Source: Frigoribacterium sp. PvP032 (GTDB lineage Bacteria > Actinomycetota > Actinomycetes > Actinomycetales > Microbacteriaceae). From it: 24,000 nt of DNA. This document shows, piece after piece, positions 10,693 through 14,272 of this stretch. The notes below the pieces were generated by a model. The model saw only the letters and a program-made list of their open reading frames with translations, ran no database searches and was not told the origin of the DNA. Each line of letters opens with the position of its first letter. Positions within the stretch are counted from its first letter, which is position 1. The translations under genes and the position numbers were made by a program. The DNA is taken from positions 2,291,762 through 2,315,761 of the forward strand of contig NZ_JAFIBM010000001.1 of NCBI RefSeq assembly GCF_017833035.1. Reading direction: 5' to 3'.

Positions 10693-13600
10693 CTAGCGGC
10701 TCGGCTGCCCGCCCTCGACGAGCTCGATGAACCGCGACAGCAGCCCGAGCCCCGCGATCGACGTCGGCATCGACGACGCGAGCGCAGGCGAGTGCACGAG
10801 CCAGGCCGCCCACTTCGCCCGCGAGATCGCCACGTTCAGCCGGTTCGGCATCAGCAGGAAGTCGAGCCCGCGAGGGATGTCGGCGGCGGACGACGCGGCC
10901 AGCGAGACGATCGCGACGACCGCCTCCCTGCCCTGGAACAGGTCGACGGTCCCCACGGTCGTGCCGGCGAAGCCCGCGAGGTCGAGCAACTCGCGGATGA
11001 CGGCACCCTGCGCGTTGTAGGGCGCCACGACGATGACGTCGTCGTCGGTCAGCGACCGCGTGCCGTGCTCGTCGGTCCAGCGGCGGCCGACGACGTCGCG
11101 GACGAGCTCGACGACCCGCTCCGCCTCGTCGACCGACGACGTCGTGTCGCCCGCGTGCACGACCGGCGCTACGTGCAGCCCGGGCTCGATGCCCTCGAGC
11201 AGCCGCGACGGAGCCCGCGACTCGAGCTGCCCCGCGTACGAGAGCCGCGACACCGTCGCCGTGACCGCCGGGTGCATCCGGTACGTGCGAGACAGGAAGT
11301 ACCCGAGCTCGGCGGGCAGCACGTCGTGTCCGTCCGCCACCCAGCCGAGCGCCGACTCGTCCACGGGCTCGGGGTGCGATCCCTGGCTCACCTGCGGCAG
11401 CTGCTGAGGGTCGCCGAGCAGCAGGAGGCGCTGGGCGGCCACCGAGGAGGCGATGGTCGGCGCCAGCGAGAACTGTCCGGCCTCGTCGACGACCAGCAGG
11501 TCGAGCGACCGGCGCGGGATCGTGTCGGCGTTGGCGAAGGTCCACGCCGTGCCGCCGACGACGCCGCCGGTCTCGCCTGCCCCGCCGAGGAAGCCGGCCA
11601 CTGTGGCTCCGTCCTTGACCGGGGTCCAGGCCGCCGCCTCCAGCACCTCGGCGTCGGTGCCCTTCTTCGGCACCTTGACGACGCGCGACGGGTCGACTCC
11701 CTTCGCCACGACCGCGTCGAGGAAGTTCTCGACGACCGCGTGCGACTGCCCGACGACGCCGACGCGCCAGCCGTGCTCCGTCACGAGACGGGCGACGACA
11801 GTCGAGCCGACGTAGGTCTTGCCCGTGCCCGGAGGCCCCTGGACCGCGAGGTACGAGCGGTCGAGGCCGAGCAGGGTCCGGGTCACGGCCGTCACGGTGT
11901 CGTCGCCGACCACGGGCACGACTCCCCCGCGCGGCGGCACCCGCCGCAGCAGGTCGAGCGCGGCGTCGGGCCGCATCGACGGCAGCTCGTCGAGCAGGGA
12001 ACGGCCCCACTCCGAGATGGCCTCGGGCTGCGGTGCCGCACGCGGGGGCGCAGCGGGCGTCAGCGCCAGCGGGAACTGGTGGTGCGGCTCGCCGCCGCTG
12101 GCCAGCGACTCCTTGACGAGCAGGACGACGCTGTCGCCGTCCGCGTCGACGTCGAGCACCGTGGCGCGGGCGGACGCACCACGGAGGCCGGGACCGGCCG
12201 CCCGGACGGTGGGCGGCAGCGGCGCGTCGTAGACGAGGTGCGGCGACGGCCCGCCCGCGCTGAGGCGGCTGCCCGGCCCGAGCGAGCCGACCAGGCGCAG
12301 GTCGCGCGAGAGCGTGCGTGCACGCGGCAGCTTCTCCCAGTCGCGGACGACCTCGGCCCGCTCGACGACGAACACGTCGCGGGTGTCGCCCCACTCGTCG
12401 ACCGGGCCACGGAGGCGGTCGAAGTGCTCTTGCCAGAACGTCTTGGCCTCGCGCCGGTGGTAGTCGATCGCCGCCGCGGCGAGTGCCAGCGCCGTCTGGT
12501 CGGCGTCGCGGTCGAGCGGGTCGACGTCGGCGAGCAGCGCGGCGAGCTCGACGAACACGGGGTCGGGCTCGGCCTTCACCCGTTCGTCGTCGACGAGCGG
12601 CAGCAGGTCGTCCGACGCGTCGACGTCGGCGCCCTCGGCGAACCCGAGCAGCCAGTCGCGCAGCCGCAGGGTCGACCGGCAGTCGTACTCGTTGTAGTCG
12701 GCGACCTGGTCGAGCCGGGCCTGGCCCGACGGGTCTCCGGCGCGGAGCGCGGTGATCGCCTCGACGTAGGCCGTGATGCTGTCGGCGGCGTTGACGACGC
12801 CCTCGCCGTCGCGGAGGTCGGCGCCCATGTAGAGCGGCTCGAGCTTCTTGATCGAGTAGCTGCGCGAGCCGACCAGCAGCGCCTTGCGGACGATCGGGTA
12901 GAGGTCGACGAGGACGCCGTCGCGCAGCAGGTCGTCGACCTCCTCCTCGCCGACGCCGTGCCGGGCGGCCAGCGACAGCAGGTGCGTCCGCTCGTAGGAG
13001 GCGTAGTGGTAGACGTGCATGCCCGGGTGCGCCGCGCGTCGCTCGCGCACGAACGCGAGGAACTCGACGAGCGCACGCCGTTCTTCTCGGAAGTCGTGCG
13101 CCCAGAACGCGGTGAACCGCGCCTCCTGGTCGACGAGGCCGAAGAGGTAGTCGAGGCCCCAGGTGCTGACGTCGCCCGCACTGCTGTCGCCCTCGGTGTA
13201 GAGCGGGTCGCCCTCGAAGTCGAAGAACACGTCGCCGGGGTCGGGTGCGGGGATCGCCGCGAGCGCACCCGCGTCGACGAGCCTGACCTCGGGCCGGCCG
13301 TGCTCGCTCGCCAGCTGCAGCTGGGCCTGGCCCCGGAGGCGCGCGAGGGCCGCGCCGCCCACTCCCGGCACGCTGCCGGTACTGACCGCCAGCTCGTCGA
13401 TGCTGTGCATGCCGGCGTCGTTCAGCCGTGAGCGCTGCGACAGCGTCAGCCCGGCGACGAGCACGAGGTCGCGGTGCAGCTCGACCTGGGCAGAGCACTG
13501 GGAGCAGCGGCCGCACGCGGTGACGCCGGGGGCGCCCCAGTCGAGCGGCGACGTCGCGCGCACCCGCTCGGAGACGACCGCACGGAGCTGCGCCTGCTGG

Positions 13601-14133
13601 GCACGGAACACCGGCGCGATGTCGGCGAGGTCGTGGGTCGACCGCGAGCCGTCGCCGAGCACGAGGTGCACCTGAGAGCCCACCGGGATGCCGAGCGCCT
13701 CGATCTGCTCGGCGTAGGCGGCGAGCTGCAGCAGCGCGGGGATCTTGGCGTGCCGAGCCAGCTTCGTGTCGTAGACCTCGTACTCGCCGGCGTCGTTCCG
13801 CACCAGGAAGTCGCTGAAGCCGATGAACGACCCGTCGAAGAAGGTCGCCTGGTAGAGCACGTCGGCACCGGCCCGCATCGCGTCGGCCGCCGCCCGCGCG
13901 GCCGCGGGGTACTCGTCACGAGAGGGCCGCTCGAACTCGACGACGTCGTGCGTCGCCCGCAGCTGCTCGAGGAACCGCACCTCGTGGTCGTCGCCGAGCC
14001 GCGCCGTGCGGTCGAGCATCGCGTCGGGCTCGTCGACCACCGTGTCGATCCGGCCGAGCTTCGCGTCGAGCCGTCGCAGGAACGCCCATTCGCACGCTGC
14101 CCAGGTCGTGAGGTCGGTCGGGCTCGTCACCAC
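10693..14133 (-). CDS. RecB/Cas4-like PD-(D/E)xK nuclease + RNase-H-like domain + SF1 (Upf1/Dna2-like, AAA_11/AAA_12) helicase fusion protein
   Basis: 1146-aa ORF.
- N-terminus: FSDFLVR...YEVYDTKLARH (PD-D/ExK) and a Cys cluster (CGRCSQC), as in TM0106-type RecB-like nucleases.
- Middle: FFDFEGDP...YHYASYERTHL (RNase-H-like exonuclease fold).
- C-terminus: helicase motifs GPPGTGKT, VVDEAGQ, LLLGDPQQLPQV, TYRMHP, VAPYNAQ, TVDLFQGRE and NVAISRAK.

The true start may lie upstream at 14154 (see findings). Confidence 0.9.
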   Translation of the reverse strand: MVTSPTDLTTWAACEWAFLRRLDAKLGRIDTVVDEPDAMLDRTARLGDDHEVRFLEQLRATHDVVEFERPSRDEYPAAARAAADAMRAGADVLYQATFFDGSFIGFSDFLVRNDAGEYEVYDTKLARHAKIPALLQLAAYAEQIEALGIPVGSQVHLVLGDGSRSTHDLADIAPVFRAQQAQLRAVVSERVRATSPLDWGAPGVTACGRCSQCSAQVELHRDLVLVAGLTLSQRSRLNDAGMHSIDELAVSTGSVPGVGGAALARLRGQAQLQLASEHGRPEVRLVDAGALAAIPAPDPGDVFFDFEGDPLYTEGDSSAGDVSTWGLDYLFGLVDQEARFTAFWAHDFREERRALVEFLAFVRERRAAHPGMHVYHYASYERTHLLSLAARHGVGEEEVDDLLRDGVLVDLYPIVRKALLVGSRSYSIKKLEPLYMGADLRDGEGVVNAADSITAYVEAITALRAGDPSGQARLDQVADYNEYDCRSTLRLRDWLLGFAEGADVDASDDLLPLVDDERVKAEPDPVFVELAALLADVDPLDRDADQTALALAAAAIDYHRREAKTFWQEHFDRLRGPVDEWGDTRDVFVVERAEVVRDWEKLPRARTLSRDLRLVGSLGPGSRLSAGGPSPHLVYDAPLPPTVRAAGPGLRGASARATVLDVDADGDSVVLLVKESLASGGEPHHQFPLALTPAAPPRAAPQPEAISEWGRSLLDELPSMRPDAALDLLRRVPPRGGVVPVVGDDTVTAVTRTLLGLDRSYLAVQGPPGTGKTYVGSTVVARLVTEHGWRVGVVGQSHAVVENFLDAVVAKGVDPSRVVKVPKKGTDAEVLEAAAWTPVKDGATVAGFLGGAGETGGVVGGTAWTFANADTIPRRSLDLLVVDEAGQFSLAPTIASSVAAQRLLLLGDPQQLPQVSQGSHPEPVDESALGWVADGHDVLPAELGYFLSRTYRMHPAVTATVSRLSYAGQLESRAPSRLLEGIEPGLHVAPVVHAGDTTSSVDEAERVVELVRDVVGRRWTDEHGTRSLTDDDVIVVAPYNAQGAVIRELLDLAGFAGTTVGTVDLFQGREAVVAIVSLAASSAADIPRGLDFLLMPNRLNVAISRAKWAAWLVHSPALASSMPTSIAGLGLLSRFIELVEGGQPSR

Positions 14134-14272
14134 GGTGTCGTCGGCGATGTAGATGAGGGCCTCCTGCGGTCACTAGCTGGTCGCGGGCACTGCCGTGAGG
14201 CGGGTCGCGTTCCGACGACGGTAGCGGTCACCGCCGACGTCGAGCCCTGGAGCTGCCCCCTCGACCAGGTGC

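Follow-up and report, generated by a model that had tools for sequence, protein, structure and literature searches.

A nuclease-helicase fusion gene with a predicted DNA damage promoter beside a jetD-less jetABC operon in Frigoribacterium

INTRODUCTION

Can a Wadjet operon that lacks its own nuclease gene make use of another nuclease encoded next to it? The question is raised by a 24,000-nucleotide stretch of the genome of Frigoribacterium sp. PvP032 (contig NZ_JAFIBM010000001.1, positions 2,291,762 to 2,315,761; hereafter, the window), in which a gene for a fusion of a RecB-like nuclease with a helicase (hereafter, the nuclease-helicase) is arranged divergently from jetA-jetB-jetC, an operon of the type-I Wadjet system without jetD. 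A first-pass annotation of the window hypothesized that JetABC senses DNA and that the nuclease-helicase, in place of JetD, degrades it. Taken at face value, the locus would be a new variant of Wadjet in which the effector has been swapped; the comparisons presented here argue against this, and a probable mis-annotation is averted. We consider it rather probable that the nuclease-helicase is a vertically inherited enzyme resembling Dna2, EXO5, and AdnAB, predicted to be damage-inducible, which borders by chance a jetABC operon that lost its jetD. The first-pass annotation had named a conserved actinobacterial repair enzyme that is adjacent by chance as its alternative, and this alternative fits the data best, with orthologs widespread in genomes where no jet genes are nearby.

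RESULTS AND DISCUSSION

Domain architecture of the nuclease-helicase

The nuclease-helicase is encoded by a single intact open reading frame (ORF) of 1146 amino acids (10693-14133, minus strand) that starts with GTG and has a codon pattern typical of a real gene (G+C of 0.77/0.48/0.95 at the first, second, and third codon positions). The seventh codon upstream of this GTG (14133) is an ATC (14152-14154, minus strand), which is preceded at 7 nt by AGGAGG and aligns with the conserved N terminus of the homologs (MY[ILV]..D..VVTSP). The same arrangement of ATC and AGGAGG is found in the closest relative (L007). From this alignment, the true product is probably a protein of 1153 amino acids that starts at the non-canonical ATC. 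The first-pass annotation had paired a length of 1146 amino acids with an end coordinate of 14154; the length is correct when counted from the GTG, and the coordinate is explained by the position of the ATC start codon.

The same annotation had divided the protein into a Cas4/RecB-like nuclease with a cysteine cluster, an RNase-H-like part, and a superfamily 1B (SF1B) helicase, and motifs, Pfam, and NCBIfam all agree with this division. The motifs FFDFEGDP, GPPGTGKT (helicase motif I), VVDEAGQ (II), GDPQQLPQV (III), QGRE (V), and ISRAK (VI) are all found in the translation. The Pfam profile RNase_H_2 matches residues 302-495 with 53.8 bits (cutoff, 22), and AAA_12 (73 bits), AAA_11 (43 bits), and AAA_30 each score over their cutoffs, while PDDEXK_1 stays under its cutoff (17.6 bits versus 22). 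The NCBIfam profile TIGR03491 (TM0106 RecB-like nuclease) matches residues 44-495 over its positions 26-462 of 462, with 160.1 bits (cutoff, 97.45). In an alignment of 24 orthologs (59-84% identity), the nuclease residues D108, E119, D122, K124, Q136, and Y140, the cysteine cluster C14/C207/C210/C213, and the DEDDy-type set D305, E307, D410, Y480, and D484 are invariant, and all helicase motifs are unchanged. We suggest that the DEDDy-type set represents the catalytic residues of the RNase-H-like domain.

Structure models point in the same direction. The full-length model (mean predicted local distance difference test [pLDDT] value of 77) is matched best by mouse Dna2 (PDB 5EAN), with both halves covered by the alignment, and next by Upf1, IGHMBP2, and Sen1; Dna2 is also the top sequence match in the PDB, where Upf1 and IGHMBP2 are matched too. 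A model of residues 1-520 (pLDDT, 86) matches the nuclease domains of human EXO5, Cas4, AdnAB, Dna2, and AddB (E of about 5e−4 for EXO5, Cas4, and AdnAB). The nuclease modules of these five are iron-sulfur (Fe-S) RecB-family nucleases. Structural matches to the RNase-H-like half of the model are weak. Judging from motifs and models, the reading of the protein as an Fe-S RecB/Cas4-type nuclease followed by an RNase-H-like exonuclease and an SF1B Upf1/Dna2-like helicase appears correct.

As in Dna2, a putative Fe-S PD-(D/E)xK nuclease at the N terminus precedes a beta-rich linker and an SF1B helicase at the C terminus. The protein is, however, not a Dna2 ortholog: sequence similarity is found in the helicase only, the overall identity is 13%, the template modeling score (TM-score) is 0.26-0.29, and an extra RNase-H-fold DEDDy domain is located between nuclease and helicase. 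Residues ~1-240 share their fold, a cluster of four cysteines, and the motifs D...(D/E)xK and QxxxY with Cas4, human EXO5, AdnAB, and AddAB. In contrast to Cas4, EXO5, and AdnAB, the nuclease-helicase fuses this module to an exonuclease-like domain and a helicase of its own in one chain; it also differs from Cas4 in having no CRISPR link and from AdnAB in not being a heterodimer. As a member of TIGR03491, whose name its homologs carry (in NCBI, bifunctional RecB family nuclease/DEAD/DEAH box helicase), the nuclease-helicase is a new member of a database-named family and not a new kind of system. That family is defined by sequence only, and some of its members appear to correspond to the nuclease half alone. 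Such members are carried by Paenarthrobacter and Pseudarthrobacter plasmids (H82-H84), where the tblastn match, annotated as TM0106 family RecB-like putative nuclease, spans query residues 1-498 only. A literature search on "TM0106" returned nothing relevant.

From these similarities we infer how the enzyme may work. The C-terminal SF1B motor would move 5′ to 3′ on single-stranded nucleic acid and feed the strand to two N-terminal sites, the Fe-S PD-(D/E)xK nuclease and the DEDDy-type RNase-H-fold exonuclease, and DNA ends or flaps might thereby be trimmed, as they are by Dna2, EXO5, or AdnAB.

Breadth and inheritance of the family

The nuclease-helicase has 6420 homologs in the database at E ≤ 1e−10. 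The best 120 of these 6420 are all full length and all from Microbacteriaceae, and their identity drops in step with taxonomy: from 80-96% for full-length orthologs within Frigoribacterium, it falls to 67-71% for those of Curtobacterium and Rathayibacter and to 59-67% for those of Frondihabitans and Cryobacterium (58-96% overall). An exhaustive profile-free search at E ≤ 1e−30 returned 1878 clusters (50% identity), more than 100 of which match the nuclease-helicase in length and architecture, at 36-54% identity. The gene is present in every Frigoribacterium species checked and is under purifying selection, with ratios of nonsynonymous to synonymous substitution rates (dN/dS) of 0.08-0.25, compared with 0.05-0.20 for the nearby deaD. 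No relatives were found in phage records or in IMG/VR. Within 10 kb of the orthologs in Curtobacterium, Rathayibacter, Frondihabitans, and Cryobacterium there are no jet genes, and the nuclease-helicase also occurs without nearby jet genes in two other Arthrobacter-type contexts, in Nocardia, and on many plasmids.

A predicted PafBC-type promoter

The PafBC (RecA-NDp) consensus tGTCgg(N10)tA(N3)T (PMC8635444) drives a LexA-independent DNA damage response in mycobacteria (PMC8635444, PMC6789036). An exact match to its core is located between the start codon of the nuclease-helicase and a palindrome array, 64-85 nt before the ATC, and no other exact match occurs in the window. Of 18 orthologs, 14 have the core at a distance of 27-92 nt upstream (expected, 0.003 per region), and in a fifteenth, GTCAG replaces GTCGG. 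Its carriers include strain PhB116 (where the neighbor is an AraC gene), Curtobacterium, Rathayibacter, Cryobacterium, and two Arthrobacter strains, which represent two families of Micrococcales, and it is present both with and without jet genes in the vicinity of the ortholog. A search for a LexA box upstream of the gene gave two weak matches in 16 loci and none in the window, and a scan of positions 9500-14700 for sigma-70 promoters and intrinsic terminators gave nothing.

Given an exact core match at a promoter-like distance that is conserved in two families, we predict from sequence that the nuclease-helicase belongs to the PafBC DNA damage regulon. In Micrococcales, the gene would then be read from its own promoter and, within the LexA-independent response, induced when DNA is damaged. 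A large, conserved nuclease-helicase family with such a promoter would be a candidate new component of this response in Actinobacteria.

The first-pass annotation had placed the nuclease-helicase and jetABC under a shared, array-filled control region. The array is real: positions 14259-14522, the spacer between the two divergent promoters, contain a tandem duplication of 132 nt. Its units are nested palindromes of ~64 nt that resemble repetitive extragenic palindromes (REPs) and form a near-perfect, very stable hairpin, CGGCGGGTTCCCGTC...GGCGGGT..ACCCGCC...GACGGGAACCCGCCG. Sharing of control is not borne out, since the nuclease-helicase has its own PafBC-type promoter, and jetA keeps its own upstream region when its neighbor changes. 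In PhB116, REP-like units flank jetABC although the upstream neighbor is another gene. In related metagenome contigs, the full unit occurs at 17 places, only two of which are next to jet genes; 16 of the 17 are intergenic, and for one, an overlap with a predicted ORF is possible. Because copies of the unit are scattered over unrelated contexts (the unit also follows jetC, stays with jetA, and recurs at 15 unrelated intergenic places), a role of the array as a shared operator was ruled out, and the array is a dispersed REP-like element.

Distance between the nuclease-helicase and jetABC

If the nuclease-helicase replaced JetD, JetABC would recognize DNA through loop extrusion, and DNA degradation would be left to the nuclease-helicase, acting in cis or in trans, in plasmid defense or in chromosome repair. 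With a JetA alignment, we scanned one genome per species and obtained 54 loci, 48 of them with a complete jetABC. In 20 complete loci, 19 from more distant Actinobacteria and one from Leifsonia shinshuensis DP-L11, jetD directly follows jetC, and none has the nuclease-helicase within 10 kb, as substitution would predict. In the 14 complete loci of Frigoribacterium and the 14 of the Leifsonia clade, jetD is absent. The nuclease-helicase lies within 10 kb in only four of these 28 jetD-less loci; all four are in Frigoribacterium, at 3 kb or less, and none is in the Leifsonia clade. Conserved co-localization with jetD-less jetABC across lineages is thus not observed, and proximity of the two comes down to one genus plus the Arthrobacter strain described below.

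Even within Frigoribacterium, the arrangement decays. The distance from the nuclease-helicase to jetA is 0.17-0.46 kb in the window, ACAM 257, and PhB160 (loci L007 and L020), 2.8 kb with two intervening genes of unknown function in L014 and L019, 10.8 kb in PhB116, 57 kb in R86507, and 1.76 Mb in strain 2-23. In PhB116 (L065, 1-9822), the proteins are ~90-96% identical to those of the window despite the 10.8-kb insert, an AraC-regulated sugar-uptake/dehydrogenase operon. Because this sugar cluster is located between the two loci, the spacer is a site of rearrangement. Part of the upstream sugar-operon gene set of PhB116 is shared by L009 and L018; the protein-family check of the sugar-operon genes covered those of L008. 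We suggest that the adjacency arose by insertion of jetABC beside the nuclease-helicase in the Frigoribacterium lineage, with no operon-level partnership.

Every genome with jetD-less jetABC that was checked for the nuclease-helicase carries it, which would suit a JetD substitute or partner, but such co-occurrence is uninformative because the nuclease-helicase is near-universal in these families. It is also far more common than jetABC (6420 versus 153 matches, the latter for JetA). With its distance to jetA ranging from 0.2 kb to 1.76 Mb in a single genus, its absence from the surroundings of all 14 Leifsonia-clade jetD-less loci, and the same PafBC-type promoter regardless of nearby jet genes, replacement of JetD by the nuclease-helicase is quite unlikely. 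Most of what the first-pass annotation had named as speaking against its own hypothesis was found, and we regard that hypothesis as poorly supported.

A second juxtaposition in Arthrobacter

One result that speaks for a partnership comes from Arthrobacter sp. ERGS1:01 (NZ_CP012477.1, a 754-kb replicon in PLSDB; L085, 7962-17206). Here, a 44%-identical homolog of the nuclease-helicase with its own PafBC motif is located 152 bp upstream of jetA-jetB-jetC and is co-directional with it, whereas the two are divergent in Frigoribacterium. This jetABC is also of type I and is followed by a convergent transporter gene and no jetD. Its Jet proteins are 21-30% identical to those of the window, while between JetC of the window and JetC of jetD-containing operons in other Actinobacteria the identity is 41-65%. 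Therefore, the two operons represent separate jetABC lineages, and the juxtaposition arose twice. An ancestral adjacency in Micrococcales as the source of both was ruled out, given that the jetABC of Frigoribacterium and Leifsonia is nested among jetD-containing operons and the Arthrobacter operon is only ~27% identical. The nuclease-helicase and jetABC have thus been brought together at least twice, a rare case of repeat juxtaposition.

Elsewhere, the link does not hold. In Arthrobacter StoSoilB13, a jetD-less jetABC is 262 kb away from the nuclease-helicase homolog, jet genes are missing from the surroundings of two further relatives of the Arthrobacter protein, and the proteobacterial plasmids that carry the nuclease-helicase family have no JetC.

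Two independent juxtapositions with different jetD-less operons, which are intact and under purifying selection, are what one would expect if JetABC of Micrococcales, from which JetD has repeatedly been lost, teamed up with a damage-inducible Dna2-like nuclease-helicase and the two juxtapositions were traces of this. The SMC (structural maintenance of chromosomes) motor would then find or hold DNA, and the helicase-nuclease would degrade or resect it, in plasmid restriction or chromosome repair. We give such teamwork a slim chance. A functional link of any kind between the nuclease-helicase and jetABC is likewise quite improbable, and the ERGS1:01 case keeps a functional or island-type link at low probability.

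Gene neighborhoods and evidence that weighs against chance adjacency and a repair role

We prefer the reading of the nuclease-helicase as a vertically inherited, damage-inducible enzyme beside jetABC by chance, but several points weigh against it. That two independent adjacencies of single-copy loci, in genomes with several thousand genes, should arise by chance among about a dozen sampled lineages is improbable. The repair role is suggested by domain analogy and by a promoter motif. Members of the family occur in 69 plasmid records, most of them proteobacterial, and the neighborhoods of the family differ between genera and often contain defense-like or mobile genes (Vsr, NERD, GmrSD, DarT, PycTM, HerA, an integrase, and a WYL regulator). 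Homologs in Nocardia and Rhodococcus have no PafBC motif. Rv1251c of Mycobacterium tuberculosis is presumably an ortholog of the nuclease-helicase. Mitomycin-C induction of Rv1251c was not visible in M. tuberculosis (PMC8151990). The PafBC-regulon supplement for Mycobacterium smegmatis has no entry for the nuclease-helicase. Because the motif is absent in Nocardia and Rhodococcus and Rv1251c is not induced, the damage-regulon prediction is limited to Micrococcales.

The repeat juxtaposition may have causes other than chance. An insertion hotspot or variable "island" beside the gene is possible, because the neighborhoods so often hold genes of the kinds listed above. A shared theme of DNA maintenance, or a real partnership, is possible as well.

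The same neighborhoods, and the plasmid-borne copies, one of which adjoins a divergent WYL regulator, could also be those of a stand-alone defense gene of the Nhi/Hna kind that destroys the replication intermediates of phages or plasmids, in an island with Vsr, NERD, and jetABC. The first-pass annotation had raised this possibility, and the architecture on which it was based stands: like Nhi of Staphylococcus, which acts on replication intermediates (PMC11084316), the nuclease-helicase combines a nuclease and an Upf1-like helicase in one polypeptide. PADLOC returned no Nhi-type or other family-level match, only helicase-domain matches to MkoA, MkoC, DpdJ, PDC-S37, and Hhe, and the presence of an Nhi model in its library is unconfirmed. 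In contrast to patchily distributed defense genes, the nuclease-helicase is near-universal, with vertical inheritance and identity that tracks taxonomy; it evolves no faster than neighboring core genes, its promoter points to a damage regulon, and it is absent from the phage and IMG/VR collections. We therefore consider a stand-alone defense role unlikely.

Another neighbor, the DEAD-box RNA helicase gene deaD, bears on the nucleic acid that the enzyme may act on. In Frigoribacterium, deaD is within 3.5-4 kb of the nuclease-helicase, in Nocardia farcinica (L084, 6043-11315) it is 240 bp upstream of the homolog, and in M. tuberculosis the gene order is Rv1251c-lprE-deaD (coordinates from the PMC8151990 supplement). 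The linkage of deaD with the family thus points to an old association across two actinobacterial orders, although deaD is not adjacent to the ortholog in most genera. Together with the RNase-H-fold domain and with the RNA helicases Upf1, IGHMBP2, and Sen1/SETX being the closest helicase relatives after Dna2, the recurrent proximity would fit an enzyme functionally related to DeaD, that is, a Sen1/Upf1-like 5′-to-3′ RNA/DNA helicase with nucleases that removes R-loops or degrades RNA. But Dna2 is the best structural match of the whole protein, the nuclease domain resembles those of the DNA enzymes EXO5, Cas4, AdnAB, and AddB, and the PafBC motif points to DNA damage. An RNA- or R-loop-directed function is, in our view, very unlikely.

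Loss of jetD from an intact jetABC operon

By their Pfam and PADLOC matches, jetA, jetB, and jetC of the window are bona fide components of type-I Wadjet (JetABCD/MksBEFG). The first-pass annotation was right that the operon is divergent from the nuclease-helicase and has no nuclease of its own: a tblastn search of the window with the PADLOC-verified JetD of L. shinshuensis gave no match even at E = 10. In contrast to JetABCD, JetD (DUF3322 plus Toprim-like DUF2220) was not found in the window or in the Frigoribacterium loci surveyed, and there is no Frigoribacterium JetD among the best 120 of 257 database matches. A remnant or frameshifted jetD after jetC of the window was looked for by codon G+C profile, ORFs, and tblastn, and none was found. 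The nuclease-helicase does not resemble the Toprim-type JetD, nor is its linkage to the operon stable.

The remaining operon is intact. jetC aligns as one unbroken match in all relatives, and the dN/dS values of the jetD-less jetABC (0.08-0.45) indicate purifying selection, with JetA, JetB, and JetC evolving faster than the nuclease-helicase.

How jetD was lost is visible in the Leifsonia clade, where jetABC is intact in 15 loci and jetD is deleted in 14; only L. shinshuensis DP-L11 retains it. Several of the 14 loci keep just the last 20-47 codons of jetD, which overlap the end of a convergent gene, and the deletion was therefore clean. At E ≤ 1e−3, remnants of the last 21-35 codons are found in L026, L030, and L032, with a weaker trace in L025, L029, and L033 (jetD coordinates: L023, 15628-16884; L026, 15655-15720; L030, 15628-15732; L032, 15729-15791). 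In L026, the remnant is inside the 3′ end of a convergent gene for a 179-amino-acid protein. The L029 record is titled Streptomyces sp. L7, but its JetA and JetB are ~60-65% identical to those of the window, like those of Leifsonia strains, and it has the same jetD deletion trace as Leifsonia loci; the organism name looks wrong. Its jetC is split into two matches, with the same end position.

We suggest that the jetABC operon beside the nuclease-helicase also lost jetD by deletion and persists as a complex that resembles MksBEF and has no dedicated nuclease. Loss of JetD leading to a complex like MksBEF of Pseudomonas was proposed earlier (PMC10586767), and our literature search found no paper on natural jetD-less operons with a replacement nuclease. 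With recent losses documented by remnants, and one sister species that retains jetD, these operons are natural material for asking, as has been done for MksBEF, what an SMC "defense" motor does once its nuclease is gone. An ATPase gene of Frigoribacterium faeni NBRC 103066 (L021, 19127-21157, minus strand), located ~3 kb downstream of jetC, has a PADLOC match to MADS (mad3, 188 bits; mad8), which suggests a defense-island setting for jetABC.

Other features of the window

The window has a G+C content of 73%, and Frigoribacterium (Microbacteriaceae) accounts for all of its best protein matches. Genes were mapped by codon-position G+C and family searches (Table 1); Rfam and tRNA scans of the window found nothing.

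TABLE 1 Positions of genes and other features in the window
Feature	Position	Strand	Evidence or remark
ThrE-type exporter	2936-4678	+	
deaD, DEAD-box RNA helicase	4710-6506	+	Pfam; conserved landmark near nuclease-helicase family
Small genes	Between deaD and Vsr-like gene		Function unassigned by family search
Vsr-like endonuclease	9141-9617	+	
NERD-domain gene	9693-10613	−	Pfam NERD, 47.7 bits; 80 bp downstream of nuclease-helicase
Nuclease-helicase (TM0106 RecB-like nuclease/Dna2-Upf1-type SF1B helicase fusion)	10693-14154	−	ORF, codon G+C, Pfam/NCBIfam, orthologs
SF1B helicase core (residues ~746-1125)	10759-11898	−	Pfam AAA_11/AAA_12/AAA_30, PDB matches
Putative RNase-H-like (DEDDy-type) exonuclease domain (residues ~300-500)	12634-13236	−	Pfam RNase_H_2, conserved residues
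Putative Cas4/EXO5/AdnAB-type PD-(D/E)xK nuclease with four-Cys (Fe-S type) cluster (residues ~1-240)	13414-14133	−	Conserved residues, N-terminal model
Predicted PafBC-type (RecA-NDp) DNA damage promoter of nuclease-helicase, GTCGGCGGTGACCGCTACCGT	14217-14238	−	Exact core GTCGG-N10-TA-N3-T
Two tandem 132-nt copies of REP-like nested-palindrome units	14259-14522		Hairpin z-score, −5.7
jetA (DUF3375), type-I Wadjet	14589-16193	+	Pfam; PADLOC JetA1, 869 bits
jetB (DUF4194/MksE-like)	16190-17041	+	Pfam; PADLOC JetB1, 410 bits
jetC (SMC-like ATPase)	17038-20703	+	Pfam; PADLOC JetC1, 707 bits
Non-coding DNA after jetC	20704-21271		570 bp
Two further REP-like palindromic units and partial units, downstream of jetC	20866-21112		Hairpin z-scores, −7.8 and −6.7
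Citryl-CoA lyase	21272-~22120	−	Convergent with jetC
CoA-transferase	22180-23460	−	
TctA	23457-end	−	

The NERD-domain gene directly 3′ of the nuclease-helicase, on the same strand, is also found in Curtobacterium sp. 9128 (L003, 13688-14449; 60% identical) and is missing from the corresponding position in the closest relative (L007).

From the Shine-Dalgarno sequence and the start positions of homologs, jetA probably starts at the GTG at 14589 and not at 14304. The very start of jetA contains a perfect tandem repeat, CGAGACAGCAGC, in two copies 15 nt apart (14594-14620, plus strand), and the length of the JetA N terminus varies among strains.

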